A stretch of DNA of 64,000 nucleotides from Marsupella aquatica (taxonomy: Eukaryota > Plantae > Marchantiophyta). The DNA lies in contig OZ316894.1 of assembly GCA_973895155.1 (NCBI GenBank), positions 4,364,944 to 4,428,943 of the forward strand. Direction: 5' to 3'. The notes beneath the pieces were generated by a model that was not told the origin of the DNA, did no database searches, and saw only the letters and a program-made list of their open reading frames with translations. The translations under genes and the position numbers were made by a program. This document shows positions 16,272-52,545 of this stretch, one piece after another (position 1 is the stretch's first letter; every line of letters starts with the position of its first letter).

Positions 16272-16323
16272 TAGTGTGACTTTTCATTTCCAGAAATTCC
16301 CAAATGTAAATTGTTGATATTTA

Positions 16324-18860: not shown

Positions 18861-21800
18861 TGTGTATTCCTTATCGCCTCTCTTTTGCAATATCTACAAT
18901 ACGGTCGAGGTCCCACCCCAAGACTTTGAATAGGAATATGGATACATTTTTTTGAATTTCCCTCAATCGGATAGCTCATTTGTTCTTCGTCATCATCTTT
19001 GTCGCTATCCTCATCCCACGGTCCCCGAAAACCTTCACCTTGCAATTCCTGGCCCAATTGTGGAACATCTTCATTCTCACTGTCATCCCCTATTTCACTT
19101 GCCATTTCCTCCAAAGAACCTACATCTTCACCTTCACTCTCAGGAATAGTTTCTCGACTGTCTGAATTGTCTTTAGAGGGGGTATCATCTTGGCATGCAA
19201 ATGTGATCTCTCCTTTTTTTTCCTCGAAAACTTTAGAACGCCACTCTTTCCTCTTGGGCTCATCCTCACTCAAGTTGGACCTCTTCTCGATTTCCTTATC
19301 AGCAGAAAATTTTCCACTCACTCTCAATTGATCCTCTTCAGTTATACCTCTCTTAGACCTCTTATGATATTCCCCAATGATCTCGACTGGATGGTCACCT
19401 AGTGCAATCAAAGGAAAACTTTAATATACTAGACAAGTTAATGGAGATGGAAATGAACAAATTTCTATACATGATATATGTACAGTTCACGGAACGGTGT
19501 TCCGCCATAGATTCCAAAAGATTTACTCAAATATACTCAATAACTGTATTTGATATCAATTTGAATAATCAATAACCAATCTGACAAGTGCTTGGATTTC
19601 ATTGCAGATCCTGAGAAATCTAAAACGCTCCATACTACACTAACATTAACAGAATGAACCCAACACATTCGAATGAAAAATCTAAGATGGAACAATCTTT
19701 CAGCACCCATCTTAAACTGAATAAACTAGATAAACTGAATAAACACATTTAAATAAACTGAAATTCAGAGAATGGTTTTCTGCAATTATCCTAGTTCATT
19801 ACTCAAACAACTATTTAGTCCTTAGTTGTCTCAATGTTACCTCTTAAAGGTCCTTTTGGGATAATTGTAGGAAGCTCATAGGGTATATAAGGAGTCTGCA
19901 ATAGGATCACTTTGTTCCTGAAGTCCATACTCTCGAATGACTTGATAGATCTCATCATCACTGAGTCGATAGTTTTCTTTTAATGTGTCAGTCAAATCAT
20001 CTCGGACATGATAAATGCTTCTCTTTTTCTCGACCTTTCTCTTTAGGAGGTTTTCAAAAGATTCTCTGTCAGGACATTTTTGAGGCACTTCCTCAAATCT
20101 CGGAAACAAAGTGTTGAAGTAATTTGTGGTTGCTTCATGACTTTCTATTGAGCAATAGCTTCTGACATTGACTTCGAACTCCTGAAATTGGCAATGTGAA
20201 ATTAGTCTCAAACCATCTTCAGAAAGCAATAGGGAAACTTTTACAGCAAACTAAATTTGAGGAAAGATCATTCTTACCATAAGACATTGAGTTAACCTGC
20301 GGCCTTCACCAAAACAGATTGCTGTATCTTGAATTGATGCTTCATGAGAAGTTTCACTAGGTACTGATAAAATTCAGTGCTCTTCTCTTCGACAAGACTC
20401 TCTTCCGTTTCCGCTTCTTCAAAATTCCTGATGTTGTCATTTAGGCAAGCCTGAATGGCCTCCAGCCTGTCTGGTTGATCTTTTGAAGCATCAAATGCCT
20501 AATTGAAAAAGATATACGAGACATACTGGACTACTTTGCCATCATTTTCCAAAAGTTGTGTTCCATCCCAATCTCCTCCTGTTTTCTTCTGCATGTATTG
20601 AGCCTGCACTGTGATGTACCCTGGGATGCGACACATTGCCGAAGTCATGTCCATTACCTCCATTGGATTCATGATCAACACAATCTTGTGTTTTGGACAA
20701 CTGACGACCGCTGTTGCTTTGAAAAATCCGTCATAAAACTCTCGGTTGTATGGACCAAACGCTGGGGACGTTGTCAGGTCAAAGAAGAAAAAGTTGGCTT
20801 TGTTTTTGTAACCCTCGGCCAATTTTCTAAAAAACGTTATGCTCCCAAATCCACTTATTGATCTAAGACGGAAGAGGTCATTTGTCTTGACAACTCTCAA
20901 GTTTCCAGCCTGGTCAAACATCATTTGAATAGACTCAACAAGGTTCTCAAAAGGCGCAGGAAGTTTTTCAATCAAGTGAGTCCACTTGCAATTTTGATTA
21001 ATTCCCATCTTCAGAACTTTCTCTCCCATAGCCTCGCGCAGCAAAGCAATCCTCTCAGAATCAAGATGGAAGAACTCCTTCACCTCTTTGAACTTACGCT
21101 TGAGCTGCACCTTGTTCAACTTCTTGAAATCGTTCACCCTAGTTTTCTCTGTAACTTGCTTCAGGCATATCACCTGAAAAACCCTCTTGTACTTCTTGCC
21201 TCGACAGTATTGCTCAAATGATCTCCACTCCTTTTCCGCCACTGGATCGTATGACTTATCATTTCTCTTCTCAGGATAGAGAGAGATCTTCCTTCCCTCA
21301 ATCAGATAAGTGGCTATTTTGGACAAGTCCCGGTCTTCAAGCCCTTGAAGGTGTGTAAAAAACCTTCTCTTCGGATGCCAAGTTGTGCGCTCCTGATAAG
21401 GTTTTGCATCTGCCTGTCGAAGTCGATTATAGTGAATGAGTTCTCCTTCCTCCAACATCCGCTGCACTTCCATCCACTTTTGAAATGTCTCGTCTGACAT
21501 TTCAAATAGGAAAGGTGACATTTCTACAAATCGCCTCTGGCCATTCACTATAACAGCTGTCGGGTAAGCGATCCTTGCAGGTTTCAAAAATGCCTGCAAA
21601 CACAGTTCACAAAAAGGTGAATTCACTTTTGAGAAGACATGGACCAGCTAGGGAACACTATTTCGTATAAAAACTACTTGCATAAGGCACCCAAAAATCT
21701 ATGAATTACATTGTGCTTACCTTATACGTTGACTTGGCTGACTTTGACAAAGCTGGATCCGGTCAACCAGCAGAAATCCAAATTGAGCGGACTTGCTTTG

Positions 21801-23209
21801 CCATAAGAAGGAACTGGCTTTCTGGCATCGATGTCCGATTCATGTTGTTCAGAGCTTGAGACAACCCCATTATCTGTGTGTTTCCTGACATATTGAATGG
21901 AGTCCAAAAACGATAGGCATTGACAGTTTGAAGCAGATCCTTCCTCTTTGGATCAAATTTGGGATCTAACATCAGCATCTTGTAAGCTTCGATGGTATGT
22001 TGTCCACCAACAATCCAAAAGTAACAGGAATCAAGAACACTTCAGGATGGTCTTGATTTGAACGGTGTTCCATTGTACATATTGTTTGCCTTGGCGGATT
22101 CAGAATCCCATTGGATGGGGACAAGGTAGACAGTCTTCTTTTCCAGAGAAATTGATGAGTGACCCATGAGTGACCCTTTTAACAACTCACAATATTTTCT
22201 ATCAAAGACTCTACACTTGTAATCGTCTGGCCCTATCTTACATCGTAGTGTATTAATAGTAATTGATTCACCATCAAAAAGAGTGAGATCTTTGTACTCT
22301 GTCAAAAGGGAATTGAACAATTCAGTTGCACGTTCTGCAGTCAACTCTTCTGGCAAGTTTCCTGGTCCTATCTCCCCTTTCCTCCCAATGGAAAACAAAT
22401 TCACAAATGGTGATCCAGTGCTCTCAAACACTTCAACTATGTAGGCTGCAATGTTTTCACCAGTTGTATCTTCGGGAGTCAAAGGCATCATCTCCTGTCC
22501 TGGTGAAGGTCTGTACCTTGGAGACAGTTTGACTAGATCATCAATTTGACTCTGATCAAATTTTGTGTAGTCATTCATTCGCATACAACGCCCAACCATA
22601 GTTTTGGAATTCACATCTTCCATCAAGAAGCAAAATGCTTCTTGGAAGTCTTCCATGCCTAGGTTCTTCTTGAAGAAGCAACCATTGACCCGATGATCTG
22701 ATATCACTCTCAGAGTGCCACAGTCCATTGCTATGTAAATGTTTTCATTATAGAGCACGATTCCCCAGCTATCAACACTGTCAAATTTCACTGGATGGAC
22801 TACCAAAGCTTCATCGCAAACAACTTTCTTTATCTTGGGACCTCTGTATTTTCTTTACAGTGTGTCTTCAGCCGATTCAGACACCTTCTGTATTTTTCCT
22901 CGAGGATTTGATGTACTCTCTTCCACCTTCCTCTTTCCTTTCCCATCATCTTTGTCCTCCATCTGTAGAAATCAATATGATGTGTCTCAAGAATTAAATT
23001 CTTAGATCGATGACGCAACCGTAGATAGAGAAATAGATTCTGGCCAAAACTTTTTATTCACAAAATATGTAACGATTACAAATTGTTTCTGAGAGGAAAC
23101 AAATCAAGCAGCTCTAGTGATATTGTGCCTATGCTGCAAGTCTAATCTTCTCTAGTTTGCATAGAAGGTCTGTAGCTCATGAACCATTCACGGAATAGTG
23201 TTCCGTGAA

Positions 23210-23749
23210 TCAATTCATCTGATCCCATGGTGCACTTTCAATGTATCCTAAATTCCAACAATCTATTAGAAAGTCCCATTTTAGTCTTGGATGTAACCGA
23301 TCAAAACTTTTTGCGAATTGGTTAATGTGCTTAGAGGACATAGTTCCAAAAAACCGAAATGTAGGATACTTTGAGTAGAGACATGATATTGTCTGAGAAA
23401 GATGTTCTTCTGGAATTACTAATGGGTGTATGCCTTTTAAATCACTTTCTGTGATTTTAATGATTCCCATCAAGTATGTATTATTGACTAGATGATTCCA
23501 CTTTCTTGAGAGTCCTCGTAAGGAGAAAAAACTAAGGATGATTGGGTGTGTTAGATTCCCCGACTGAGCCCCATGGTCAAATGACATTTTTATTATTGGC
23601 CATATTATGTTTACAACAATGTCATCCGGAAGTCCGGGAATAAGATTCCCAGATAGCTGAGTTGCTGACTTCACCAATTCCTGTTCGGAAAGTATTCTCA
23701 CAAAGACCGGTAAGAAAGATTCAATTTTTTGTATTGAGCATCTGTCCAT
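23210..23749 (-). CDS. F-box-like protein (cargo)
   Basis: LIPGLPDDIVVNIIWP...LRGLSRKWNHLV is a typical plant F-box signature in an uninterrupted ORF. Confidence 0.65.
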   Translation of the reverse strand: MDRCSIQKIESFLPVFVRILSEQELVKSATQLSGNLIPGLPDDIVVNIIWPIIKMSFDHGAQSGNLTHPIILSFFSLRGLSRKWNHLVNNTYLMGIIKITESDLKGIHPLVIPEEHLSQTISCLYSKYPTFRFFGTMSSKHINQFAKSFDRLHPRLKWDFLIDCWNLGYIESAPWDQMN

Positions 23750-23974
23750 TGCTCCTTGACGTCTGTTAATTATCACAATACAAACAAGTTATCTCAGGAG
23801 ATCTATAGAGAAAAGCTTATTTGTTTCAATTGACAGACATTACTGATGAGCATTCCTAGTAGCATTGTCGTTTTCCATATATTTAGATGATTCACGGAAC
23901 GGTGTTCCGTGGTACATGTTAGTTATTTAGTTTAGAGTTCTTGGATTAATTTTAGACAATATCTAGGGAAGTAT

Positions 23975-24361
23975 ACGGAATAGTGTTCCCTTCATCCAGT
24001 GCCTGACGGGATTAGGCACTCACGGAACTGTGTTCCATGGATCCAAGTGTATGTCTAGATCAGACACTATGAACCATGTTTCCTGAACCAGGGAGTCACG
24101 GAACAGTGTTCCGTTCATCCAATGCTTGATGGGATTAGGCACTCACGGAACACAGTTCCATGGATCCAAGGGTATGTAGATCACAGCCTATGAACCATGT
24201 TTCCTGAATCAGGGAGTCACGGAACAGTGTTCCGTTCATCCAATGCTTGACGGGATTAGGCACTCACGGAACTGTGTTCCGTGGATCCAAGGGTATGTAG
24301 ATCACAGACTATGAATCATGTTTCTTGAAGTAGGGAGTCACGGAACATTGGTCCGTGGATC
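23975..24361. repeat. Tandem array, ~121 bp x ~3.2, two palindromes per unit
   Basis: Units start at ~23975, 24098, 24219 and 24340. Each contains acggaacagtgttccgt and cacggaac(tgt/aca)gttcc(a/g)tg. Confidence 0.9.
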
Positions 24362-26935
24362 AGATATGGTTACAGGTGTTTTATGTATTAAAGAATCATG
24401 AAGATATTCTCCACGTCTTGGTGACCCCTGAAATGGATTTTAGGGTTCTTATTGAGTTGAGCTTCAGAGAAAAATGACCTGTGACTGGTTTTTGCAGTGG
24501 AATTTAGGGTTTCAATCGTTCATTTAAGCATGTTCACTTGTGGCCGACTCCAATTCCTATTCTTCTATCATTGATACACATATTTAGATTCTTCCATGTG
24601 ACTGTAATATGTTCATAGAATTGTATTCAATTGGATCTTTCACATCTATCTCTCCAATCACTCTTGCACTCTTGGAAATTCCAACCAATGACTAAGCCAA
24701 GCAAAGATCACTCACCTTAATTTGGTTTGTTATGACTGTGTACTAGTCAGTTTGTTGCTTGTCAGCTTCTGGTTGCTCCTTTCTTTCAAAATGATTGAAC
24801 TCTTTGAAAATGCAGCGTGATTGGTGGTCGATGTCAAATCCAGTACACTACCAGATTTTCACAGAACAGGTCAATCCTTCATTAAACTTAAAATTTAGCT
24901 ACGTCATCTTGTGAAGTGTACTGTTTATGCTTCGGGTGAAAGAGAGTCAAACGCCATGGAAGACGGTAGGGATGCGAATGGAGATGAAGGAAGGAGTGCA
25001 CACAGGATTGAGGCGGGGTTTTAGGGCAAGGTGACGAGGAAGAAGAGGGGCCAATTCAAAAGACTACGGATAAGAGTCAAAATCATTTATCAAAATTTAA
25101 AAGGATCAGTGAGCGTGATAATTCTTCGGATTGGGAGAGGGACGGCGAGAGGCATCACGGAGGACATTCCAATGGCACAGAACTGAGCTGGAAGGAGATC
25201 ACCAAGCGAAAGCAAGGAAGACATATAATACTCAATGGGAAGAGTGGACACAATGAAGGAGATGGTAGTGGAAAGGATTGTTCAGCCACAGAGCAACGAT
25301 TTGACAAAGGGGGTAAGAAAAATGTAATTAAATACCTTGGTGCCAAGTGAAAAGCCCAAGCCGAGATAGACCGAGAAGAGTTTTGATTGATCGTGGCCTT
25401 CAAATGTACTTTGCCTCACTGAGTGTCGATTGTCACACTGACGACAGATAGAGAGCATGACAATGAGACACGAGAGAGCCAAGTGAGAGAAGCTTCAACA
25501 CAGTTTCAATCAACCTTCTGATCCAGACTACTTAGTATGAACAAATGGACAAGAAGACAACCTATATGCAGCCGCAACCATAACGTGGAGACTGTGTAAA
25601 GATATTCAAGCAATAACTGATAAAATTAATCCAAACTAGAGCAAGGACTGGCCAAACCTACCTGAAAAGCTGGAATACAGAGAATGGTGAAGGGCCGCTA
25701 AATCCCGCTTCTTCAAAATTATGGGAGGAACAAGCTTAGACATCAAGCGAGCGACTGCCAAACATTGCTAGCTTTTAGCAAGAGGAACAAGCAAAGACAA
25801 GCAAGCGCCACTACAAAAACTTGGGACGCTCACAAGAAAACCACAAAATTTGGAAGCACAAATGAGCGTACCACGTACCACGAATGTCAATCACTAGTTG
25901 TGGGGGACCGCCACCGGCGCGCGCAGCATAACATTTGTGCAGAGCCAAACATGTGAGAGCGCACAGGTCCAAGTACGTGAGGGCACACACCAAAAAGCCT
26001 GACTAATATGGCCACAGCCGATTAGCACTGACTGTCGAAGCATAAAGACATGCACAGTCACTCAAGATCGAGTAAAACCGGTTGACAATCGGAGCATAAA
26101 GACAGGCACACTCAAGATCCACGGGCGAGTACTCTTGACAATCAGAGCACGAAGGAATGCACACCCGGTGCGAGCGACATTGATGCAAGCAGCAACAATA
26201 GAACAAGATGCGAGTGCTAAGATTACACTGTCAGTCGAAGCACAAACAAACAATAAGGTGCATCATGAACAAACGATCAGCAAAATGAGCGCCAATTCAA
26301 GAATGAGAGAATGAGGGCAAAAGATTCCTTGACTCGACGGGGCATCCTGTCATACTACCTACGCATGTCATCACACATCCATCTGCACCCATGCATACTA
26401 ATTTTTACAGATTAAAATGGATGGTATTCACGTTACCAGATAGCTCAAGTGACAACTTTGAAAATTAAGTACTTGGCTTAAATACCTTGCACATATATAT
26501 AATTTGATAAAAGATAAATGTACATAACTATAATAGTAGTAAAACTATTATCCATACCTTTCACAAGGATATTGAAAGAAAATGTAGATTTCTTTTATGG
26601 ATGATGGCATATTTAAGTGAGGTAAATGTTTAACCTACCCCCAAACAACTGTTTCATACAAGTATTTGTATAGAGAAGACACAAGGTTACCTTGAAGACA
26701 ACATAGTTTTGGCTTGAACACAACACGAGATTGGTATTCAGGACTAGGCTCCTCTTTAGTGTCAAGATGGGATATGTTAGTACACTGTCTATGAGTTACC
26801 TAAATTTGTATAGCGCATCATGCTTGCCTTATTACCTTGATCAGTAGTCCACATCTCTTTGACCCTATATACTAGTTTGATACCTTACCTTGAGGTTAGA
26901 GTACCCCTTATACCTTTACTAGACAGGTGTTTTTT

Positions 26936-27625
26936 GGGGTATTTTCTAAACCCTATACCTTCCCAATTATCATCCAATTGTTGTGTTGCCCTTGAGGACC
27001 ACTAGTATAGAAACACAATGCCCTCATGCAAGTCAACGCATCTTATTTCTTGCATTATCAATTCTTTCTTAAGTGTACCATATTTGTCATGCCATCAACT
27101 TGCATTATTTATTTTTTGCTCAATAAGAAAGTCATTTTGTGTACTTTTTGCTCAAAAACTCCCCAAACTGAATCCCGCTGAATGTGCACAAAATGGATTT
27201 ATTATTGACGACTACTATGTGAGAAGTGAAGAGGTTGTTAATAGCTTTCTATTGAGCCTAACATTAGCTGTAATAGAGTGCACCTTTCTTAGATAATTAT
27301 CCAATTTTGAAGCAAGTGTTCCGAAAGCCTAGTACCCTTCCAGAAATGCCATTTTTTGAACTTCTCAAGTGGAACCCAAATTCACTGAGTAGAGTAAGCA
27401 GTACCCCCTGATTCCAAATACAAACTCAATTTTCTGAGACCATGTCCCTTTCCCTAAATATCCCCGTTTTCCCAACCTTACCCTTCCTTTGTATTTTTTG
27501 CTCAACATGTCGCCAAACCCCCACTTTAGAGCCCCTCCTTTAGTTTTCCGGGGTATTCTCTAAACCCTATATACCTTCCCAATTATCATCCAATTGTTGT
27601 GTTGCCCTTGAGGACCACTAGTATA
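26936..27625 (+). repeat. Dispersed ~74-bp direct repeat (26936-27009 and 27550-27625)
   Basis: ggggtatt.tctaaaccctata..ccttcccaattatcatccaattgttgtgttgcccttgaggaccactagtata occurs twice. Confidence 0.85.
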
Positions 27626-30376
27626 TATAATACTCGTTGATAGCCAGCTTTCCAATAAACCTAAGATTAGGGCAAATAGAGTGCACTATCCTACCCAATG
27701 GTGGAACTAAACTGGCTTGTCTTTTAAAACTTACACCTTTTATGACTTTTGTGAGGAGGAGACGTGGCTACTGTTGGTATGGGCTATCTAGCTTGACCTT
27801 CTTGTTTTGGTACTTTTAGGACCCCTAAATGCCACTAGTCGTATTAGAGACCTCCTAGAAATAGACCCTCACATAGAAAATGTCATCAATAGACATATTT
27901 CAAAAGGGGTATTATCATTGTTTGGTGTGTAAGTGCCCAGCTGATATTAAAGCCTAGGAATGATGATATATTGTACCATCCTTATTAAACACATCTAAAG
28001 TAATGCTTTGTTTTTCCAGGGCACCAACTTTACTTGACCACAAGAGAACTATATGGCATTTCACTGTCTAGTAAAAACAGGGGGATGATTGCCTCCTATC
28101 GGCCCCTCCTCTTTATTGTTCCTTTACTCCATTGGCCCCTTTACTAAATTTCACAAAGGTATTTACATGGGCACATACAAAGTACACATGAGGCCAACCC
28201 AAAGTCCAAAAAATGCACTACCATTGGATGTAAAACCATAGTTTGTGTATAAAACATAACAATGCAGTCGGAAGGAGGGGTAATTTCATTCATTTATAGG
28301 CAAGGGGCATAACTCATTAAATGGCTTCATTTGTGACTAAAAGGGAATAATTGTTTCACATTCCTCACATTGCCTGGTATTCCCGCTGGTATTAGAAAGG
28401 AGTGAGGTCCCAGGCTGGGGTATCTCTCAATTGCTTTACCACCTCAGCTAGACCCCTTGCTTACAATCCTTTAATAGAATCTCACACTACCTTGTGTTAT
28501 GTAGTTGTATGGTTTTCCGTGTGAAGGTCTCATTAGGGTCTAAACCCTAAACACTAACTATAATTAGGGTTTAGGGTTTACTGTCAAACATTGAGGCTTC
28601 TTATATTTGTCTGTCAGTTTATAAGCATTCTGAAATTGTCTTCAAATTAATGGGTTTCTTTGTAAAGCACGAGAGTTCAGGCCCCTTCATCCAATTTTGA
28701 AGTTGCAAGTTACTTGATAATTGTTCAATCCATGACGTATGAGTCCACATTTGCTTGAGTTAAATGTCCTTGTTGATATGGCCACAGGTGAGAAATTCAA
28801 TCCCTCATTTTCTACTTGAGGACTAGGATCTTTCAAAAGCTATTTAGCTCCCTTCATGCTGAAGGGCCTTGAGGCAATGGTGGGGCATATAAAACACTGT
28901 CTAGCTCATTAGAGTGACTGTATTTTATCTCCTCAAAAGTTGCTTTAATCTCAAAATTTTCTAGTCCATAAAACTATGTGGGCAATCACAAGTAACCCTG
29001 ATACAACTAAGGATCACAATTTTTGGAGACACCAACAAACCTCCTTTCTAAATAGCTCATCAATCTATCTCCTCTGTCACACCATTTGGAGTGATAGTAT
29101 AGTGTATTATACTATCTGGATTTTGTGGTCTATATCATGGGTGTCATATGTCAAGTACTTTGTTTATTTGTGTTTGTGAGGGATATTTATCCCTTTGAGT
29201 CTGATTGAATATTAAAGTGAGTCTCTTCTCTGGTCAATCATGGAAGAACTACTAACTTACTGTAATTTGTTGTGTGCACCAGTGATGAAATGGATGATTG
29301 CACATTAGTCTATTTGAGTTTCAAAGTGGAACTTAGGGAGCATTGGAACCCATTATAAAGCCCACTCAGGGCTGGTGTATATGCAACTCATTTAGACATA
29401 GTGACAGTAAAAGAGAAGATGTGATATATATCATGATTAAACTGACTAACCTTTTCAAATTGTTAGGGCCTCATCACCTAAACCCTTTGTTATTGTCTGG
29501 TGAAAAACATGGCGAGTATTTTCTCTGCCTTGGAAATTAACTCCTATAATACACAGTTGCGCCACTTTTAAAGTGGTCTTCATTCAAATTTCACTACAAC
29601 ACTATCGGCCGGTTTTGCGAAGACAATCTCATCGCAACTAACAAGCCCCTGATTTTCATAATTCTGGCTATTGCGAACATACGCGCATCGCACCCCCTTT
29701 GCACTTTGCGAACCTAATAACTTCGCACGCGGACCATCGCAATGGCATCGCAACATCATGGCAAACTGAGAAGCTGAGAGGTTCGCAATATTCAATACTT
29801 CTGCGATCCATTATACGTCGCATAAGGTTCGCAAACATACACGCACACGTCCCGCGCGGGCGTCAATATTTGAGACGGATTTACCATTGCATCATATTTG
29901 CGATTGATACTGGTTCAATTGTTTTGATGGGGATTGTATGACAAAGAGCGATACCAGTGATTTCAGAAGTTTGTGAACGGTTTCGATTAGGAAAGTGCGA
30001 TCCTAGAAGTATCACAAAAACCCGACATATTTGGATCTGAAGTTCTGAAGTTAATTGACTCAAAAAGTGCGACGCCTTGGGGTTAATATTGTGCGATGGG
30101 AATGAGTTCTTAAAGGGTTCGCAAAATTATGATCACACAGGATTCAATACATTATTTGCGAGGGGTTTTCCTTGGAATCCAATGTGGAAGGCAAAATTGT
30201 TGTTTTATAAAATGGAAAAGCATGAACAAAATGATAGGGCTTCAAAGAACCCTATACATGGACAAGAGGGGGGAAATATCTGATGCTAGGTCCGCCCTTC
30301 TAAACCTATGCTGCCTCTTCCTACCCTAAGCTCCGGCATGACAAGTCACTCTCATGCATGTATCTCTACAAAATAA

Positions 30377-32424
30377 CTAGAATGGGCTCTTGCGGCTCCT
30401 CTTGGTTGGCTTCTTGGCTGGCTTCTTGCCCTTATCCTTCCGGGGATCCTGTTGGTGACAGGTGCGTGATAGCCGTCGGCGCTCCTGCTCCTGCTCCTGC
30501 TGCTCCTCTGGCTCCTCCTGCCCCTCCTGCTCCTCCTCCTCATCCTCAGGGTCCTCCTCCTCCCCCTGGTCATCAACGTGTGCTGATGACACACGACTAC
30601 CACCACTACCACGGTGGGAAGAACCTACCTCACGACTACTCCCCCCCCGAGCACCACTAGTACCAGGAGTAGCCCCCTCATCGTCATCACTACTGGTCAC
30701 ATCAGCACCCGACCCCTCAGGCTCATCCGAATCCTGCATCCATTACATATCATTAGTTTCCGCAAGACATAAAGGGTCACTCACAATGTTCGCATGCTAA
30801 TCATATGGTTCACACTTAGACACTTACAATAGCCAACTCGGCATCTACCATCGCAAAGAGGTACTTTCGTCCATGCTCTATCGCCACCTCAATATGCTTT
30901 TTTGATATCTTCCTTTTGTACCTCCGATACTGCCATGCATAAAACCAATTAAAATTGGTTAAATTTGCCCTTAAGCATACCCTATAGCCACAAGTGACGC
31001 CTAAATCCTCAACTACTAAACATGACCCAAAAAAAATTTAAAATTCAAATTTGCGAACTTATAAGCATAGCAACTTGCGAACCACCTTTTTTTGCGAAGG
31101 CGTTGCGATGGAGTTTGCGATGCGCATTTGTTCGCAAAGGCATCGGAAAATTGAAATGGAAAAAGTCTATGATAGACTTTGCGAGGGGTTTGCGAACAAA
31201 TACGCATCGCAACACCTTCGCAAACTGTGTTCCCGAGAGTTTTTAAAAATTTGCCAGAAATTCTAAGTGTCAGAGTTGCCCTAAACTAGTAACCAAGCAA
31301 GCATGCACAACAGCAAGAACCTTCGGGGATGTCATTCACTTGCATTCCGGGCTTGCATTGCATAACTCTGAAAGGAATAGAGAGGTTAGGGAGGAGCAAG
31401 AGGCACTCACAAAGTGTGACTTGAGGCCGGGGAGCCCGCCTTGACCCAACTTGTGGACTGGATTGGGGGTGGATTTCACTCGTTTGGCTGCATCTGTGAA
31501 ACGCTTGGGTGGCTTTCCCTCCTGGTCGGCCACCTTCTGCATCTCAGCTACCTTCTGCTCAAGTGGCTTCAGGTCGTGGTCAGGGGGGAGCTTCCCGGCC
31601 TCCTTTGCTTTCAAGGCTCGATCTAGATTGCCCTTCCACTCTTCCAACTCGTGAGCTGCCTTAATTTGCACCTCAATCTTGTAAAACGAATTCCAGATGT
31701 CCTCGGTGAAGTGGAGGGGTCTGCGCAAGTTCCTGTATGATCTCAAGTCTTTCAGGTGGGCTCTAATCTTCATCCTGTCATGGTATCGCATTTGAGACAT
31801 AGAATTTGAAATCTTATCTGCCAACCATTGCTCATCTATGTCAGGCCCATTGCGAAATGCATCCTTGATTTGGTTGATGACCCTCTTTCGCTCTGCCTTC
31901 TCAATCTTCCCCCACTGCATGCCTCGTGAGAAATTGCTTGTGATAATCTGCTTGATTGTGCTCTTAGCCCCTGCATACGCTAGCTCAGTTGGAGTCCCAC
32001 TCGTCTCCAAGGCAATGAATGGAAGTTTTTTTCTTGCTTCCTCTTTCTGACGTTGCTCCTCCCTCTGTTTTTGAATTGAATCTCTCTCCTCTCTTCTCTT
32101 CTGCTTCTCTAGGGCTTGAGGAGAGGCAACTCCCGACTTAGTTCTTTCCTCTCTCTTCCTTTTTTTCTCTCTAGCCTTCTCTTCAGTTGCGGCCCTCTCC
32201 TCCCCCTCTCTAGTAGCTTGTCCTGCTACAATTCCAGTTTGCAAAACCTGTCCAAGAATGGCACTCAAAGAGGCAAGCCCTGCTGGAGAATTGAGATTCA
32301 CTTCTCCCAATTGTGCAGCACTGAGATGTTGGGCCACTAAGTCTGCCCAGGCATTCTTCTCTTTCTCTGGATTTCCCCCATTGCCACTACCACCTTGCCC
32401 TCCACTCCCCTCACCGGTAGCCAT
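30377..32424 (-). CDS. CACTA-2 ORF2 (TnpA/Ptta-like), exons 32424-31411, ~30930-30828, ~30733-30377
   Basis: FRNGPDIDEQWL and HKLGQGG..F|gtgagt motifs; same exon layout as the other two ORF2s. Confidence 0.75.
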
Positions 32425-42100: not shown

Positions 42101-43860
42101 GTCCTCAACCTCAGCGGAAGGATCTAGCATATTGGAGAGAGGTATGGGGGAGAGTTCAGGATCCGAGTGATCCATTACCATTATTCAGATGTGGCATGAC
42201 CCGTTTGTCTGCATTGTCACAATTGCCATATTGGTCAGATATGCCCATTAATCACTTGTTAGACCCTATGCACATTGAGGGGAATGTGGGGAAATCATTG
42301 ATTCGCCATCTATATGGGGAGAAAAATAACAATTGGAGAGAAAGTTGTGAGGAGATGGGGATGCATGGTCTTTTGGGTTTTTGGCCATCTTTGGACCCCC
42401 CTGGTGCTCCCCCTAGCATCCATCCTCCTTGGGTTTTGACAAGGGCAGAGCGCATTGAGTTTCGCAGACGTATTGGGTTGATGAGGTTTCCCACAGGTTA
42501 TGGTACCAATCTTCGGAAGGCATTTGGGGGGGAGGATTCTCCAAAATGGCCATCTTTCTTGAAGACACATGATTATCATCGGTTGCTTGAACATGTTCTT
42601 CCAGTTGCTATTATTGGATTGGGTAGTGAGGAACTTCGTGATGCCCTTTGGTCATTGGGTAAGCTCTTAAGATGGGTATGTCAAAAGGAGGTACAGGAGT
42701 CCGATGACATTGCTGCTATGGAGATATTTGGAGTAGAGGTTGTCTGCAAGTTGGAGAAGGCACTCCCTCCCTCATTCTTTGATGGTCAGGTTCATTTCCT
42801 CATACATTTAGTGCACGAGGTTGCAATTGCAGGCCCAGTACATTGTCGATGGATGTATTGGGTAGAGCGTTATATGGGGGTGATGAAGTCATATGTCTTT
42901 AATCGCGCTAGGGTGGAAGGTAGCATTGCGGAGGGTCATCTTGGAGCAGAGAGTATGTTTTACTGTACAAACATAGTTGCCACACTAGATCCTAGTGCTC
43001 CTAGGGGAGGGATAGATGAGGCAGCACGAGAGGCTGACTACGAGGATGATAGACTCACTGGGGCATCTGGAGAGCGTCTCATAGGCTCAGCAGAGCGTTT
43101 ACAGCTCACAACATTTATGTTGTATAACTCACCCGAGGTTGTCGGGGAGTGGACAACATTTTATGAGGAGGAGAAGCAAAACAGTCGATGCCCACGGTTA
43201 TTTCCCAAGTTTCACCCATACATGAAGGAGAAGTTGTTAGAAGTGGATGCCCTGGTGGGTACCGGGGAGAGTGTATTACACTACCCAAATGTGACAGATA
43301 AACTTCGTACCTTGGTTCATGGTCCACTACTTATAGTCACGACTCGGACTGCCATGTGGTCAAAGGGGAGACATTTTCGTGTGGAATGACTTGATGAGAA
43401 GAGGGCAGCTACACAGGATTGTGGGGTGATGGGTTGGTTCACCCAAGATTCCCAGAGTAGCATGTCAGACATGAATCCCATTCGCTCCACCGTGGCCCAT
43501 TATGGGAAGATTGAGGAGATCCTAACAGTGAAGTACCATGCACATACTACTTTGGAGGAAGTGGTATTCAAGTGCAAATGGTTCAAGATGAATCTTGTAG
43601 GCCACAATCGTACTTGTGAAGATGATGCATGCGGTTTTACTCGTTTGAAGACATCCGCAAATAGTGTCATCAGTTCCAACTGGAGGTCCTCAGATCCCTT
43701 TGCCTTCCCACATCACCTTGAGCAATGCTTTTACCTACCCTATCCCAATGACCCCGAGTGGTCCATTGTCATGCCGTATATTCCCAGATCACGGTCCATA
43801 GTCCAAGAGAGACCCAACGTAGTTGTAGTGGAAGATAGAGACATACCCCCCACGAGTTAG
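39168..43860 (+). pseudogene. CACTA-3 transposase (exons ~39168-39398, 40615-41782, 41897-43860), three in-frame stops
   Basis: PCWCVRCKG transposase-associated motif; HACVDDC, LAADG, LDPMHIEGN, WMYWVER. TGA at 39318, 41410 and 43387. Confidence 0.9.
39537..40493 (+). CDS. SET-domain exon (putative lysine methyltransferase) of CACTA-3
   Basis: IGYGLFA, FPYIG, YAL, IDGD..GNLAGYINS, NVEW and VAVRTIRAGEELLCEY; acceptor aaatag|gtg; open frame. Confidence 0.9.
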   Translation: MPRRPPPPLVPEAVWLEGFLARARELLAVPPAQMPLSPPAPIPTPVPTHEHVEGEPVSRPEVVTTRVLRTRPRSGRRRRQYGPLDQVDRRKEVLGTSDRPAGNVDYICVEGRFGLSYLTGRAAEVLKDFSPSLFKFPDFIPTDEPVQIWGRPWIVKASSIGHDIGYGLFALEDIVVPPKPWRRGYDGEHLFPYIGAVYNSKSWNILLRQHPSWGVYALRMDSNPDEVFTRPWHCRMIDGDPIRNGNLAGYINSTTGRDRGLEANVEWIQMFGPPRHPYFVKHMDDHIMTVAVRTIRAGEELLCEYEWDAPKLSLRCRP

Positions 43861-44828
43861 TATAAATTGTAGACCCCACCATCTTCATGTATATTTTTAC
43901 CGGCACTATCTTTTTATCGGCATTCTACGATTTTTCTCATTGTCCACAATTTCATGCAGTATACATATCTATTGCTTAAAGTATGCCCCATATCTGGATC
44001 CATTAATTCCATGCAACCTATACATTGTAAAACACTAAAGTCCCATATGTCCCATTCAAATACCATCGGAAACATATCGGACACACATCAGTACTGCCAA
44101 AGCCAAAAACCCCTTCCCATCCTCAAAGTATTGGATTTTCCGATACTATAAGAATCGGAAGCCACTATCCGATACTCCACAGATCGAACACTTAAGCCCG
44201 AGGCCGAGGAGGGGTCCGATAGAAATTTCAACGGATAATAACCGATACCTAAGCCTTTGCAAATGATTTCCGTTGTAACTAGTATCGCAAAAATAAGTCC
44301 GATAACACTTGTATCGGTAAATGTCCGAAAGCAAACCTATCGGAATTAGCTTTCGATACTATTCTTATCGGACGTCTGAAAAACATGTCGGCTCTCAATT
44401 TGCGATACAGGATGTTTCGGACATTGTCCGATATGATGGGGATTGGATAAGGTTTTCGATACAAAAACTATCGGATAGTAATGTCCAATTTTGGTAGTAT
44501 CGGAAGTTCCGTAGCTGAGAGTATCGGAACGTTTCCGTTGTGTTTAGTATCGGGCGCGTTGAGAAACGCGTGTTTTTAGTATCGGAAAAGTGCCTAAAAT
44601 GTACTAGTGAAAAATGTGTGGGGATGGTTGTCCAAAAGTCATATGTATGTGCGGAGCACATTGCTCGATATGGCCAACATCGAGGTCTTACACCGGGAGC
44701 TTCTTCATCCCGTATGGTGAGTTGTAAACTTACTGTGATTTCCATTTTATTTTGTAAATCTTGCTAGGTAGCATAAAATAAAATTTGGGAGGTTCATCAC
44801 ACTCACTTGGTTCCATTTCTTCCTATAG

Positions 44829-45644
44829 GTATCCAGTAGGCCTACACCCACTACACCAACACCCTATGTTCCCTCACAAGGAGTTCTAGATGCTATAGGC
44901 TCGGCACTTTCACAAGCTTTTCATTTAGTGGCAGCAGGGCAAGGTAGTGTTGGGACAATTAAGGGTGACAGTATTGTTACAAGAGGGAAAAAAAAGTCAA
45001 AAAGACAGCCTAGAGGGGAAGTGGATCAGTACACTTGTAGGGTTGATGGTAGATGGGGCCCTTGTACCTTCACAGGGAAGTGTGTTCCTATCATAAAGGA
45101 TTGGAATCCGGAGTGCCTTGGTTTGCCATGTGATATAACCTATGGTGAGGAGATAGAAGTTTGGGGAAGACGTTGGGTTGTCAAGAGTTCGACCCTAGGG
45201 GAGAGGCATGGGTATGGGATTTTCTCTTGTCAGGACATTATTGTGGATGATATGGGTGGAAAAGGGCGCTCTTCAGATGGACCAACGTTGTTCCCGTATG
45301 GTGGACCCATTTACAAGAGGAGACATTGGAACATGATCCTTGTTCAACACCCTTACTGGAAGACTTATGCATTGGACATGGATACTTTTGATGGTTGCAC
45401 CAGAAAGTATTGTGACCAGCGTATAATTGATGGTGATCCCATCCGTAGTGGGAATATTGCCGGTTTCATCAACAGTACTGTGGGGACCCGGCCTAAGCGT
45501 AGGAAAAACTGTGAATGGGTTTTTGTTGATGGTCCCTCTCCAGCCCCTTATGGGCAGAGATATCATCATGACCATTGTCTAGTTGTAGCTAATAGGACCA
45601 TTCTCGCTGGAGAGGAGTTGTTTACACATTATGAATGGGATTAG
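44829..45644 (+). CDS. SET-domain exon (putative lysine methyltransferase) of CACTA-2
   Basis: HGYGIFS, FPYGG, YAL, IDGD..GNIAGFINS, NCEW and VANRTILAGEELFTHY; acceptor ctatag|gta; open frame. Confidence 0.9.
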   Translation, partial: VSSRPTPTTPTPYVPSQGVLDAIGSALSQAFHLVAAGQGSVGTIKGDSIVTRGKKKSKRQPRGEVDQYTCRVDGRWGPCTFTGKCVPIIKDWNPECLGLPCDITYGEEIEVWGRRWVVKSSTLGERHGYGIFSCQDIIVDDMGGKGRSSDGPTLFPYGGPIYKRRHWNMILVQHPYWKTYALDMDTFDGCTRKYCDQRIIDGDPIRSGNIAGFINSTVGTRPKRRKNCEWVFVDGPSPAPYGQRYHHDHCLVVANRTILAGEELFTHYEWD

Positions 45645-48600
45645 GATTACTTTAGGGACATGTATTATACGTTCATCGTATGTGAATGTATGTTTTGTAA
45701 TGACATGTTCTTTTTATATTGTTAATAATATGTTTCGAGCACTACTATATTTGGCGTTAATTTCATTGTGAATACTTTATTGTATTGTCTATAGAATGTG
45801 CGGCCTAGTCAAGATATGTTGCCAAGGAGGTTGAGAGCTACATATCAAGAAATGGGCTTGCCACAAGACGGGGAAACATCATCAGCAGATTCCTCATCAA
45901 GTGACAATGATAATGACAGTCCAGATGAAGGGGCACCTCGGACAAATTATGAGGTCATGCAAGACCAAGAGTCAGCCATGGATGACTTCATGACAGATTG
46001 GTTTGGTGTAGACATTGGTGGTGAAGGAGGTGTCCCACCCAATGAAGGAGACCCTCCACCAAATGTTGCACATGATCCAAGGCCTCAACGTACACCTGAA
46101 GGACAAAAACAATGGGAAGAAGCTGAGGCACATGCTAGAACACCTATTTATGGGGGTGCTCATTTGAATAGACTATCTGCCATCTTGGCATTGATGAATC
46201 TTCAGGCAAAACACAAGGCAAGCAATGCGCTACTATCGGATTTGTTTGCAATTTGCCATGATCTCTTGTTACCTAGTGAAAATGTGTTGCCAGGAACTTG
46301 GAAGGAGGCAAAGAGGGTTCTATCATCCATTGGCATGGAATACCATATCATTCATGCTTGTGTGAATGATTGCATTCTCTATCATGAGACCAATGCCAGC
46401 GCAACTAAGTGTCCAATTTGTCAAGAGCCTCGATATGAAACCAACATGTTGACCTCAAAGGTGCCTAGAAAAGCTGTTCGTTGGTTTCCTATTATTCCTC
46501 GATTGTTGCACATGTACCGATGTTCTGACTTGGCAGAATTGATGGTATGGCATAAGACACATCGATCAGAGGCCGGTGTCATGCGGTTGCCAGTTGATTC
46601 CCCTGCTCACAAGCATGTGGAGTCACAATGGCCAGAATTTTCACGTGACCCTCGTCATGTGAGGTTGGGGTTGGCATCAGATGGGGTAAGCCCACACTCC
46701 CTTGGAGGGAAAGGGCGCCCTACTTCAGTTTGGCCGGTGGTTGTTATGAATTACAACCTTCCCCCATGGTTGTCCATGAAAAAGGGATTCTTATTGCTAT
46801 CATTGATTATCCCAGGTCCATCTAAGGTAAAAAACATGGACACCTACTTGGCGCTCTTGGTTGGGGAACTCCATAAATTATGGGGGGGTGTATGGGCATA
46901 TGATGGTCGGACAACTACAGGAGGGTTACCACGTGTCTTCCAATTGAAGGGAATCATTATGTGGACCATGCATGACTATCCAGGTGAGTGGTATGGATTT
47001 GTATTTTTTTCATGTATTGGAGATCAAGTTTGTTTGGAAGGAAGTCCCTCTTTAATTCTATGTACATGAACTTTTCAATTCCTTTGACTCTAATTGAGAA
47101 TGTTATTTTGTGAGCAGGGTTTGGGTTTGTTTCTGGGTTCCAAACTCAAGGGTACAAGGCATGCTCCACTTGTGGTCCAAGCCTTCACGATATGGCCAAG
47201 TACTCAAAATGGTTGCACAAGATAATCTACCTTGGTCATACCAAGTTTCTTCCACTTGGGCATCACATGAGGTCTGACCCCCTTTTGTTTTCAGACTTTG
47301 ACATGATCAATGGTGATGAGCGTGAGATACCTGACCGCACAACATTTTCGTATTGGAAATCCATAGCTGATAGGGTGGCAGACCCTGAAGATGCCATGGG
47401 ATTTGATGGTAGTGGATTGACAAGGTGGGGTATACTGGCCACTTTGCCCTATTGGCCTGAGTTGAAGATTCATCACTTGTTAGACCCCATGCATATAGAG
47501 GGAAATGTTGGGAAGGCTTTGATCAAGCACTTTTATGGGGAAAAGAACATTAATTTTAGGGAGGCATGCCAGGATCTAGAACGACATCCAGATGTATGGA
47601 TAACAGTTGATGAATCCACAGGGATGGAACATCGTCCTTCAGCTCCATGGGTTTTGAGTGTTGGTGAAAGAAGAGAGTTTCGACAACGCATAGGGCAAAT
47701 GCGGTTTCCTACAGGCTATGGTGCCAATCTACGTAAGGCTTTTGGGATGGAGGACAGTCATAAATGGCCAATGTATCTCAAGACACATGACTATCATCGT
47801 TTACTACAACATATACTTCCTGTGGCAATCATAGGTTTGGGGAGTGAAGAAGTGCAAGACGCCCTTTGGTCACTGGGCACTTTGTTGAGATGGATATGCT
47901 CAAAGGAAATATATGAAGAAGAGATACCACGGATGGAGGTATTGGCAGCAGAGGTGGTATGCAAGTTGGAGAAGGCCCTCCCTCCTTCCTTCTTTGATTG
48001 CCAGGTGCATCTTCTCGTTCATCTTGTGAGGGAGGTTGCCATTGCCGGTCCGGTGCATTGTAGGTGGATGTATTGGCTGGAAAGGTATATGGCCGTGTTA
48101 AAGGCTTATGTACGGAACCGTGCACGAGTGGAGGGGAGCATGGCAACTGGATACTTGGCAGCTGAGAGTATGTTTTATTGTAGTAACATCTTAGCTACCA
48201 TTGATCCTAGTTTTCCACGCACTTGGATGGAAGAGAGGGAAGTGGAGGAGGACCGTTTAACAGGTGCAAAAAAAACACGCTTACTAACCGCAGTGGAGTT
48301 GACACAGGTTAGTACTTTCATGTTGAGTAACAGCAATGTGATGGAAGATTGGAGAGAGTTTTATGAGGATGCAAAGAGGGAGAGTCGTCGCCCAAGGATC
48401 TTTCCAAAGTTCCTTGAGTATATGAAGGAGAAAGTACTTCAGTTGGATGCTATGGTGGCCCAAGGTGAGAATGTATCACATTTTCTAGATATGACTCCTG
48501 AGGTTCGAACAATTGTTCATGGTCCTTTAAGACTTGTTCAAACCAGAACAGCAATGTGGACACAAGGGAGGCATTTCAGGATTTCTGACCTTGATGAGAA

Positions 48601-50840
48601 GAGGGGAAGAACTTTTGATTGTGGAGTTCAAGGGCAGTTCATGCAAGATTCACAAAGTAGCCGTCATGACACTAATGTGATCAGAGATGTGGTGCCTCAC
48701 TATGGGAAGATTGAGGAGATCTTGATCATATCCTATGATGCCGATTCCAAATTTGAAGAGTATGTCTTCAAGTGTAAGTGGTTCAAAATTCACCTGGTTG
48801 GTGATAATCGCACGGTACTTCTTGATGAGTGTGGGTTTACTCGACTGAAGACATCAGCAACTAGCTTTCAACCATCTCATTGGCAAACATCTGAACCATT
48901 TACATTCCCAAGTCACCTTGAGCAGTGTTTCTATATTCCGTACCCACCAGACCTAGAGTGGTCAGTTGTTATACCGTATGTGCCACGGTCCCGTTCCATT
49001 ATCTCGGAAAAACCTGACGTTATTATTGTGTCAAATGGAGGCGAGGATGAGGACCAGGTTTGATGCACTAGTAGTAAAACTTGTTGTGGGCCCAGAATTT
49101 GACCCTAAACTAACTATCATGGTTTTATTTATATTAACATATTACTTTTCTTCTTTTGTTTTACAAACACTTAATTGAACTTTGAAATTTCATCTCACTG
49201 TTATATATGCAACCTTAGCCGTTTCCAAAGCTATCCTCATGCATGCCACCTTTTTGAAAACCCTAGCTGTAACCTAAACACATGCATTCTCCATCTTGTA
49301 AAGAAACTCTCTCAAACATTTCCATTCTACAAAATTTTCAAACAACTCTCTTTGCAAAACATTTTCAAGCTTGTCAAGAAGCAACTTCTGAACACTTTGT
49401 GAATAACACACCATCGGTAATTGTGATGCCAATGTGTTCTCAACTTTGCAAATCAACTGGATTCGGTAACTTGCGACTATTTATGCTTCACAATATTGTG
49501 CGAAGCTAATAGGTTCACAATATATATTTGAGTACATTATTATCGCTAAATTATGAAACAAAAGAGATCCAAATGCAGTCGCGATGGTTGCGGATCCACA
49601 AATACTTTGTGAGACGAATAGTATCTGAAAGAGTTGCGAATTCAATCCGATCTCAAACAAATTGCGAGGTATTTAGCTTCGCAACACCATGTTGCGAACC
49701 TGTGAGCATGGTTTATTGTGATGCGTGTTTGATCACAAAATATCTGAAGTCGATGACATCGCAAGACCATCCCGGCATAAAAAAAAAGCTTCGCAAAAGG
49801 GGCCAATATGTAGTAGTGTTTGCAGGGCACAAATTTTTTAAAAATCTGGTCAAAGGTAAGTAATACAGCCATGACCATGAACAATAATTTCATGATTGTG
49901 GCATCCTATAGTGTTGCTTAATATTTTTGCTTGAATGAGGATACATTTGGTCAATAAATTGGGATTCTGAGTAGACGTAGCTAGCCATGACAAAGGTGAA
50001 CTGTGTATTTTAGGAGTTGGTGTAAGGCATGTCTGGTTGTTGGTGTGTGGTATACAGTGTTGTATTTTCTCTCAACAAGTGGGGCTAATCACCAGATCTG
50101 ATGGTCCTCCGTTAGTAGTAAATTGAGGAGATAAAAATCCAGTGTTAGAAATAAGAAATAGGGTGAATTACATAAAATTTTGTGATATTTAATATTTAAT
50201 ATTTCCAAAGGTAGACAGTGAAGAAAAGAACGGATTTATTTTGCTAATCCCACAAATTGGTGGGCAAATTGGGTCTAGGAGATTATAAGATCAATTAACC
50301 ATAATTTTTTAATATATTTTATTTGTTGCAAACCTGAATGAGCAAAAATGATGCTCTCAGGAATAAACCCTTTGCCTTCTTACAAAGAGTTACACACCTG
50401 GCTAGTTAATAAGCAGGGGCTAAACGATTCATATAAATATTCATTTGATAATAAAATTTGTTAGCTACGTCAATGTGAATTATTTTACTTGCGATTCATT
50501 TTTTTGCATTTGTTTCATTCCAGCCTCGATATTCAAGAAGCGACTATAACATGGCTGAGTAAGTATGATGAAAGTTACTCTTGGGCAATCGTGACTGAAG
50601 ATATCAACATCTCAGTTCAAAATTTAAAATTCAAATTGATCAGCCCAAAACTTCGGAGTCGCACAGAGCGGGATTGGTTTACAGTGTTTCCAGTTTTCCT
50701 AACCTCGCGTCGTCCCCCTTTTTGTTTCATTATTTGAAGCGCGCGAACAGCATTTTTGAGTGGATCGAGCCAAGAGATTGGAGACCTGAGCTCGTTTAGG
50801 AGAGAGGATTGCTTACTTGGAGACGAGTATTTCCAAGCAA

Positions 50841-51483
50841 CAATCAAAGTCCGCGATGGATTGAAAGCTCGTGAGGTTGTAAGCAGGAGCTGCAATTCAT
50901 TGAAGTAAAGGCTCTGTCAGTTGCTTCGAGCTTGAATGTGTTGTTTTCCAGAAGTGGATGTGGTCTTTTGATTTGGAGGAGAGAAGAAGCGATTCATCAG
51001 CAGCGAACATGTTGCAGAATTCTGATTTTGATTAGAGCTCGACTGTGGGTGGAGATCTAGAATAGCCAAGAATCGAAAGGAGGCAATCCTTCCAAAGTGG
51101 ATATCATTTGATGATTTGGAGGAGAGAAGAAGTGATCCATCAGCAAAGAACGTGTTTCAGAGTTATAGAATTGTAATCTATTTTGTTTGAGAGCTCGACT
51201 CTGGGCGGAGATCTAGAATTGACTAGAATCAAGATGATCGAGTAACGACAATCAAAGTCCGACATGGATCAGAAACCTACGAGGTTGTAATCAGGAGCTG
51301 CAATTGATTGAAGTGACAGACGGGTCTGTCAATTGTTTTATAGCTTGTTCCGTTTCCATAAGTGGATGTGTTCTGGTGATTTCGCGGAGAGAAGAAGCAA
51401 GCCGTCGGCAAAGAACGTGTTTCAGAGAGACAAAATTGTGATGTATTTTGTTTGAGAGCTCGACTGTGGGTGGAGATCTAGAA
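50841..51483 (+). repeat. Imperfect duplicated modules upstream of the Sola-like transposase
   Basis: caatcaaagtccg..gaggttgtaa.caggagctgcaatt occurs twice (50841, 51250). gagagaagaag...agagctcgact.tggg.ggagatctagaa occurs three times. Confidence 0.75.
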
Positions 51484-52545
51484 CAACCAAGCAATTTATC
51501 ACAATCTACTTCAGGTCAGTTTGTATATTACTCTTTGAATGTTGTTGTTTTTCTACTCGAAGTTGTTTGTAGAACAAATAAGACAAGGAGTTATCCACTA
51601 TCATCCTTAACAACGTTGAATAGGAGGTAGAAAACAGTCAATGGAGGCTTCAAATAACCAAACATTTCAAGAAATCTAAGAGTATCTGGATAAATTTTAT
51701 TGTTTCAACCAGAATATTTAAAGCTTTTGACTTTATGACTCTCAAAATCTCTAGTACAGAACAATGAAGGACGGAATTGGAATAATATTCCTCAAGCCTT
51801 CATTTGATGTATCTTTGTGAGAAACCGTAAAAGAGGATCTGATCATTATTTAGGAGGGAATAGTTCAATCGTATAATGGCACTCTTGCCCATTATTAGAT
51901 CCACCCAAAATGATGACCTTGAGTCAAAAGACAAGATGATCTCTAATTAAGGAAAATAAGAGTTTGGACTCTAGAGTAAATGTCCTTCATCCTTTATATT
52001 ATGCTAAAATTATGGACAGGTGTCAATTTATTCTCAAATTCAGTTCATTTGGACTGGTTTTCAATCCTTGACTTACAGATTTAGGTTTTTGGCGAAACAC
52101 CGTTCCGTGCAACACATCCACCCTTATATAGACTATTGTTCACTAGTTGAAATCACGTTAAGCATGACCTGAGTATGTTTTTTGTAGAACATTGTTCCGT
52201 GAATTGGATTCTCGATGCTTTGATGACCCATAATAATATAATCCATTTATTCCATTAAGATAATCCATTTAATTTACTTTTGGGGAAACGGTGTTCCGTC
52301 ATCAAAAAGTTTCTATGGATGATCCATAAGTTAGTATGATACATCACTAGTTGAGTACAAGATAATTATTCAATACTTAGCTTAGATATGACAGATTGCC
52401 GTTTGGAGGAAGACCATTATGGAATATGATTAACTAAGAATGTTTATGTTCGAGTATTTGTTTATGTTTAGTAATTATGTAAATAAGTTTATATCATTTT
52501 CCAATACATTTATGCAAATAATAATAGTCTTATATCTTAATTCAG

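Follow-up and report, generated by a model that had tools for sequence, protein, structure and literature searches.

A giant transposon from the liverwort Marsupella aquatica carries copies of a 19-bp palindrome in both of its arms, which raises the question of which protein reads this word and with what outcome. The element lies in a 64,000-nucleotide stretch of contig OZ316894.1 (hereafter the window, to which all coordinates refer). Besides a transposase gene on the + strand, it carries a spliced cargo gene on the opposite, - strand. Our best explanation, to which we assign a probability of roughly 0.45, is that the palindromes are candidate family-specific sites of a cargo protein with a predicted ParB fold, with an anti-silencing outcome. 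A 19-bp dyad implies a dimeric reader. In brief, the cargo protein would bind the palindromes of its own family as a dimer and, once bound, would keep the chromatin of that family open, as VANC does in VANDAL elements.

An element-specific palindrome in both arms

Motif specificity was assessed within the 64-kb window. When we scanned it with CACGGAACANTGTTCCGTG, allowing up to three mismatches, we found nine matches (at 19488, 23189, 23893, 24021, 24097, 24144, 24218, 24265, and 24339), a number reached by 0/100 shuffles (shuffle mean 0.04). A looser scan added 23974, the seventh copy of a 121-bp tandem array, and three right-arm copies at 52091, 52183, and 52282 with 4, 4, and 6 mismatches, respectively, in which the right half is best kept. 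With a profile trained on the left arm only, 12 left-arm and 3 right-arm sites scored at least 10 bits and none did elsewhere in the window, nested CACTA transposons and flanks included; all 15 sites fall inside one element (16255-56482). Seven of the 15 come from the single tandem array and are not independent. A profile retrained on four left-arm sites recovered the right-arm trio (null mean 0.12; 0/1000 shuffles), with no site in the 43,999 bp of the window outside the two arms. These scans returned every position listed in the original prediction, including the seven in the array, and bear out its claim that the word is element-specific in the window and present in both arms. The palindrome that it described, with a single-base spacer, is real, but no copy is perfect: positions 9-11 are variable, and the consensus is best written CACGGAAC-N3-GTTCCGTG. 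Likewise, its statement that all copies are noncoding holds for those it listed but not for a weaker copy in a cargo exon, at 18032, or for a second coding copy at 22056, which is below the profile threshold. The copies are distributed as follows:

18032..18050: weaker copy, 17.6 bits, within a cargo exon
19488..19506: copy in a cargo-gene intron (about 19402-19840)
21649..21667: copy of degenerate form within intron 21595-21720 of the cargo gene, absent from the original prediction
23189..23207: copy right after the stop of an F-box-like open reading frame (ORF) and ~230 bp upstream of the exon with the ATG of the ParB gene
23893..23911: copy upstream of the cargo ORFs
23974..24357: tandem array of a 121-bp unit present 3.1 times (89% matches), with two copies in each unit and seven in all
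52091..52300: three degenerate copies (52091, 52183, 52282), 250-450 bp ahead of the first long transposase exon

The sites lie mainly in introns and 5' regions of both genes, with the densest clusters directly 5' of the two divergent genes and part of them amplified as the tandem array. The element that contains them is organized as follows:

16255..56482: giant cut-and-paste transposon, DUF7869/Sola-like, 40,228 bp, ~20.0 kb minus the nested CACTAs, delimited by a pair of terminal inverted repeats (TIRs) and a TCAT duplication
16255..16271, + strand: left TIR, 17 bp perfect, imperfect to ~75 bp, preceded by the 4-bp target site duplication (TSD) TCAT
56466..56482, - strand: right TIR, followed by TCAT
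52546..55856, + strand: DUF7869 transposase (HDKMD, QLDN, GHTHEDVD), one internal stop, E 1.2e-36
29592..49818: nested CACTA (TSD TTT), with its own subterminal hexamers
34276..44609: inner CACTA within the first (TSD AAA), with its own subterminal hexamers

In the database, the five closest relatives of the transposase are 35-39% identical to it along most of the query. We take DUF7869 to be linked to Sola transposases. The DUF7869 relatives conserve D (HDKMD), D (QLDN), and HEDxD, candidate residues of a DDD-type transposase such as those of the Sola superfamily. Members of the Sola superfamily have a 4-bp TSD and TIRs of 11-1124 bp (PMC10741241), and the TCAT on both sides of the element and its TIRs agree with both features. 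A degenerate duplicated block upstream of the transposase (50840-51500, ~75-84% identity) holds no palindrome.

What the copies have in common is the word itself. Among eight dispersed copies, identity is 0.73 in the motif vs 0.28 in the flanks, a difference inflated by the choice of sites by likeness, and over 33 kb and both arms the dispersed copies share the word and not the flanks. CpG retention in the motif (23/30) was set aside as evidence, the sites having been selected by likeness. That a palindromic word might come from an unrelated miniature inverted-repeat transposable element (MITE) or another small repeat, or form an RNA hairpin, is suggested by the symmetry of the sequence and by a small TIR-like pair elsewhere in the element (29539-29558 / 49999-50018). 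Around the palindrome copies we found no shared flanks or TSD, however, and Rfam gave 0 matches over 16000-57000. Sequencing depth, which is a rough guide and not a copy number, points the same way. Across four runs, the interior of the left arm, array included, is covered about as deeply as the long contigs that are nearly identical to it. Contig depth (X1) is 74-130 in the left-arm and 44-61 in the right-arm motif regions, similar to the rest of the element interior and far under the 1,000-6,000 of flank and CACTA bins, with no excess over the array that would indicate a MITE, an origin that the original prediction named among its refutations. A MITE origin of the word is largely refuted, and we consider this whole group of explanations most improbable. 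The transposase exons collect contigs at ~80-85% identity with a depth of 760-1,340 (X1); on a rough reading, the family of the giant element looks low-copy and decayed, and a sister subfamily looks more abundant. The 20-bp inverted pair mentioned above brackets the outer CACTA, and many contigs end loosely at 29536-29569; it seems that this CACTA inserted into a small element present in multiple copies.

A cargo protein with a predicted ParB fold

The cargo gene, which would encode the putative reader, is pseudogenized by several stops and frameshifts. Its parts, all on the - strand, are listed in the order of that strand, preceded by the ORF between palindrome copies:

23213..23788, - strand: ORF with a weak F-box-like stretch (E 0.14, below cut-off), between palindrome copies
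21721..22963, - strand: cargo exon with a PH-like N-terminal domain (weak, Z about 4) and a ParB-fold domain with GGQHT, stop-interrupted
20278..21594, - strand: cargo exon with a helical region and an S-adenosylmethionine (SAM)-methyltransferase-like fold with degenerate motifs, one stop and one frameshift
17803..19401, - strand: cargo exon region, an acidic, K/E/R-rich low-complexity linker
17100..17796, - strand: Ulp1 / Peptidase_C48 domain, H-D-Q-C residues visible, one stop, E 1.7e-20
16327..16859, - strand: NIF phosphatase domain with DMDG, E 1.1e-10

Public runs disagree with the window at a cargo stop codon and two small indels (20501, 20329, 18288), so part of this damage may belong to one haplotype or stem from errors of assembly.

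A HMMER search with the first long cargo exon turned up 21 relatives. We modeled the structure of the closest relative of the ParB exon, which is 60% identical to it, with a predicted local distance difference test score (pLDDT) of 73.9. Its top Foldseek matches are ParB (prob 1.00, E 1.8e-3), with VIA Z scores of 9.1-9.2 and a root-mean-square deviation of 2.1-3.1, and KorB is among its structural neighbors (Z 7.5-7.6). The Atlas neighbors are a sponge cluster, DUF3723, and ParB_N. The cargo gene is therefore predicted, from the model of a homolog, to encode a ParB N-terminal fold, in line with the ParB-like cargo of the original prediction. In sequence searches, the ParB and methyltransferase parts had no significant match in Pfam, PDB, or PHROGs (best PHROG, a ParB family, E 0.13), and when longer proteins were searched through a word index with the ParB exon, 0/1,419 candidates were confirmed. 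Viral contigs held no exact match to the motif and no confirmed protein candidate, and no ParA was found among the 34 long ORFs scanned.

A liverwort protein runs through the ParB exon into the next exon (hhalign prob 97.6), which supports the two being parts of one protein. This liverwort homolog, together with the CACTA and LTR surroundings of the element, also points to a nonseed land plant as host. The model of this next exon (pLDDT 43) has the adenine methyltransferase CcrM as its top Foldseek match (E 9.7e-3), followed by SAM-dependent methyltransferases, a weak assignment that comes from Foldseek alone. DPPY and FxGxG are the motifs of DNA amino-methyltransferases. The exon has no DPPY (it reads DLTT, DGTI, or DATM), and FxGxG is reduced to FGEG/FGDG. 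The predicted methyltransferase-like fold is probably inactive. The Atlas assignment of this exon to DUF5906 (0.87) was below the useful threshold and was not adopted.

Palindromes of related elements and their candidate readers

The window contains part of a second, related element, with a palindrome of its own:

1..5794, + strand: sister element, right part, similar TIR, cargo exons 26-33% identical
1402, 1538, 1684, 3770, 5466: sister palindrome GAACCATGGTT, in noncoding DNA

The count of GAACCATGGTT in the sister element was reached by 3/200 shuffles, and the palindrome of the giant element is absent from it. Three of the copies lie in an intron homologous to the intron holding 19488. A methyltransferase-like domain after ParB, which the original prediction does not mention, is common to both elements. 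In the sister, we detected no Ulp1 between the methyltransferase-like exon and NIF (E 0.69), and the NIF domain is without DxD aspartates. Because the sister has a palindrome without either, Ulp1 and phosphatase activity are not required companions of the palindrome, and their delivery to the element by the ParB-like protein, which the original prediction inferred, is not supported as the core of the mechanism. Ulp1, NIF, and the F-box-like ORF would likely be lineage-specific add-ons outside the conserved core. The 121-bp array unit of the giant element also has a TGAACCATGTTT-like word (at 24070, 24191, and 24312) that resembles the sister palindrome; the likeness may be left over from a former specificity, or it may be accidental.

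Outside the window, a metagenome scan for transposase relatives confirmed 13 of 190 candidates (L001-L013, 1.2-6.4 kb each). Six of the 13 hold close transposases (32-38%), five of them with usable upstream DNA (L001-L005); outside this count are L006 (73 bp upstream), L008-L013 (too short, distant), and L007 (non-palindromic repeats). Long palindromes lie upstream of the transposase at all five loci. L001-L004, which form one transposase clade, share the word CTCAAAC-N4-G(A/T)T(T/C)GAG, with 3, 2-3, 2, and 1 good copies, respectively. L005 has ~10 copies of TTGGCCATATGGCCAA at a spacing of ~140 bp with decayed spacers, and motif identity is 0.80 vs 0.31-0.38 in the flanks. An unbiased dyad count was significant for L001, L002, and L005 (0/200 shuffles each) and for 0/10 control regions. 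As judged from a quick IQ-TREE version of the transposase tree, in which the transposase of the window is on a long branch, the palindrome words track transposase clades. Two further repeats were seen at these loci. In L007, a distant DUF7869 element, the region downstream of the transposase contains the non-palindromic repeat CGGTCAGGCAGC, which occurs in either orientation (3830-5730; dyad test 9/60, not significant). Downstream of three related transposases we found GGTGTT-N4-AACACC (L002:4429, L005:5170, L006:3620 and 3664), which reads like the two termini of the window element joined via four bases.

One more relative comes from the contig L014, which holds a complete DUF7869 element of 11 kb. 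This element has a second, divergent gene, and GTTGAAATTTCAAC occurs in it 31 times. All 31 copies lie in one intron of each of the two divergent genes, and the stretch between the genes has no significant dyad (30/200 shuffles). The contig was filed in a bacterial bin; it has many introns and, besides the DUF7869 transposon, a Helitron that includes an OTU domain, and it is probably mis-binned animal DNA. The VANC-like layout of introns, 5' regions, tandem amplification, and a family-specific motif recurs in these relatives, in line with the VANC parallel of the original prediction.

Conservation of the word above its flanks, in the window copies and in L005, fits selection on the word. Because the word changes from family to family and has outlasted the decay around it, its reader is likely to be encoded by the element. 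We regard it as improbable that the words are host transcription factor sites or neutral products of tandem duplication: the origin of 7 of the 15 sites from one array and the residual likeness of right-arm spacers in 2/3 pairs (p 0.02, 0.005) would suit such an origin, but the dispersed copies that share only the word, the different words in different families, and the absence of a significant dyad from the control regions would not.

A ParB-fold reader need not be an anti-silencer. It could be an operator-binding autoregulator, KorB-like, or a looping architectural factor. The densest clusters being directly 5' of both divergent genes, KorB being among the structural neighbors, and the degenerate methyltransferase motifs, which leave no evident modifying enzyme in the conserved core, all favor this possibility. 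On the other hand, copies are also found in downstream introns (19488 and 21649, and the introns of the sister), and a promoter operator is hard to reconcile with L014, where the copies are in 3' introns of both genes and the intergenic dyad is not significant. On balance, this role seems to us unlikely.

Alternatively, the transposase itself might bind the palindromes, using them as internal sites for enhancement or synapsis, or to activate itself as the AtMu1 transposase does, and transposases can indeed activate their own family (bioRxiv 10.64898/2026.08.24.746577). The motif groups track transposase clades, at five loci the palindromes lie upstream of a transposase while no cargo was seen on the short contigs, the L014 arrays are near the element ends, and the N-terminal half of the transposase gives weak Transposase_23 and helix-turn-helix (HTH) hints, all below cut-off. 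In the window, however, the sites are at least 1.7 kb from the left end and at least 4.1 kb from the right end with none in the TIRs, whereas AtMu1 and TnpA bind termini, and the nested CACTAs offer local examples of subterminal motifs for comparison. Moreover, the pairing of palindromes and ParB has been reported with the unrelated transposase of Plavaka elements. That a ParB-like gene and inverted-repeat arrays occur there with a different transposase superfamily suggests that the cargo is the common factor. A transposase reader is decidedly unlikely in our estimate, and the structural model and these comparisons make it rather likely that the reader would be the ParB-fold cargo protein.

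Several observations weigh against the ParB-fold cargo protein as an anti-silencing reader. We identified no HTH or other DNA-reading domain in it: the confident match stops at the ParB N-terminal domain, and the region that follows is helical in the model, with a pLDDT of 43. The CTP-binding arginine patch of ParB is GxxR. At its position, 5/5 aligned sequences read GGQHT, which makes CTP clamping and sliding doubtful. In the metagenome loci, the unbiased dyad count is not significant for L003 and L004 (159/200 and 94/200 shuffles), tandem duplication inflates the counts of L001 and L002, and no cargo homolog was found at any of the 13 loci, on contigs of only 1.2-6.4 kb. That word groups track the transposase tree is equally expected if the transposase is the reader. 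As for L014, its arrays lie 0.3-1.6 kb from the element ends, and the likeness of its second gene to ParB and methyltransferases comes only from inspecting motifs (hhalign E 0.17), with no hidden Markov model, Pfam, PHROG, or PDB support.

Known systems and what the palindromes would mean

Two of the closest parallels are algal. Sola1-1_Ec32 of the brown alga Ectocarpus is a ~20-kb Sola-type element in which an opposite-strand gene has ParB-like and N4C/N6A methyltransferase domains, and the accessory protein was proposed to bind and modify its own element (PMC12477816). Compared by description, it resembles the window element in size, in the opposite-strand accessory gene, and in the combination of ParB and methyltransferase; it differs in coming from a brown alga and in that no target palindrome is described in the accessible text. 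The window element, by contrast, has methyltransferase motifs that seem degenerate, and it has Ulp1, NIF, and the F-box-like ORF in addition. In the red alga Bostrychia, Plavaka (EnSpm) elements have the ParB-like PAG3 with adjacent tandem inverted-repeat arrays and a proposed self-binding (bioRxiv 10.1101/2025.02.11.637652). The likeness is a ParB-like accessory gene beside a tandem inverted-repeat array, here the 121-bp array with its seven copies. Plavaka differs in its transposase superfamily and in its 2-oxoglutarate-oxygenase effector, and the accessible part of that preprint gives neither the motif sequence nor a comparison between families; the window element also has copies scattered through introns and next to the transposase. 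Self-binding ParB accessory proteins have already been proposed for red-algal Plavaka and brown-algal Sola1 elements, and what is added here is a land-plant-type case and the motif divergence between families. The literature covered, with Repbase entries, subscription papers, and supplements outside its scope, gave no account, for land plants, of Sola elements that bear ParB or of the palindromes of such elements.

In Arabidopsis, the VANDAL elements have short family-specific motifs in introns and upstream regions that are tandem-amplified; the VANC motifs are 8-9-mers, VANC function is proven, and palindromes go unmentioned in the accessible text of the 2017 paper (PMC5735166, PMC10398659). 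The window element shares with them family-specific motifs in noncoding tandem repeats, introns, and upstream regions. It differs in that VANDALs belong to the Mutator superfamily, whereas its transposase is DUF7869 with a 4-bp TSD; Pfam scans found no MULE domain and no VANC homology in the cargo. TnpA of En/Spm and the AtMu1 transposase are element-encoded activators with clustered family-specific terminal motifs (bioRxiv 10.64898/2026.08.24.746577). Their sites are terminal and, as given there, non-palindromic, while those of the window are internal; in Arabidopsis, transposase and TnpA sites are terminal and VANC sites internal. The bacterial ParB/parS systems (KorB, Noc) have in common with the window element the ParB N-terminal fold (Z about 9) and palindromic sites of 16-19 bp. 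They differ in that here there is no ParA, no HTH was identified, the GxxR arginine is missing, and the sites are inside a nuclear transposon. A segregation role for the window system is implausible.

The CACTA-like elements of the window have subterminal words of their own (TCGCAA, ATCGGA, and ACGACGT), as expected of TnpA sites, and TCGCAA resembles the CCVTCGCAAA motif of Arabidopsis Spm1. The regions are:

29592-30200, 49400-49818, 34276-34900, 44000-44609, 5795-7300, 13800-14460: CACTA subterminal-word regions

Both nested CACTAs have a SET-domain ORF (Pfam E ~1e-5) ahead of their transposase genes (39537-40493 and 44829-45644, both + strand), and a third CACTA-like remnant has a homolog of it (8063-8716, - strand, 33-45% identity). 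These ORFs recall the SET accessory gene reported in Plavaka elements. Right of the giant element lie Copia and Gypsy remnants (RVT_2, RVT_1, RNase H; 57635-61679).

Because the cargo is a pseudogene, the window copy is probably a relic of the system. In a broader form, which we consider possible but doubtful, DUF7869/Sola-like transposons of land plants and animals would run a domesticated ParB-parS-type address system, in which the ParB-fold protein of each family coevolves with a private palindrome placed in introns and promoters and brings an exchangeable effector tail (inactive methyltransferase fold, SUMO protease, C-terminal domain phosphatase) to the copies of its own family. VANC and TnpA would then be joined by a third sequence-specific system of anti-silencing, this one of bacterial derivation, and nature would supply a library of DNA-targeting pairs that are orthogonal to one another. 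The 2025 algal papers, in their accessible parts, named no target word, and the window gives an explicit candidate. The different word of the sister in a homologous intron, together with the words of five plant-like relatives and one animal-like relative, makes a cross-specificity experiment feasible. If the ParB-fold cargo protein is the reader, each family would recognize, and possibly protect, only its own copies. Transposon self-recognition by sequence would then extend beyond the Mutator and Spm elements of Arabidopsis, and a bacterial partition fold would have been reused in eukaryotic chromatin conflict.

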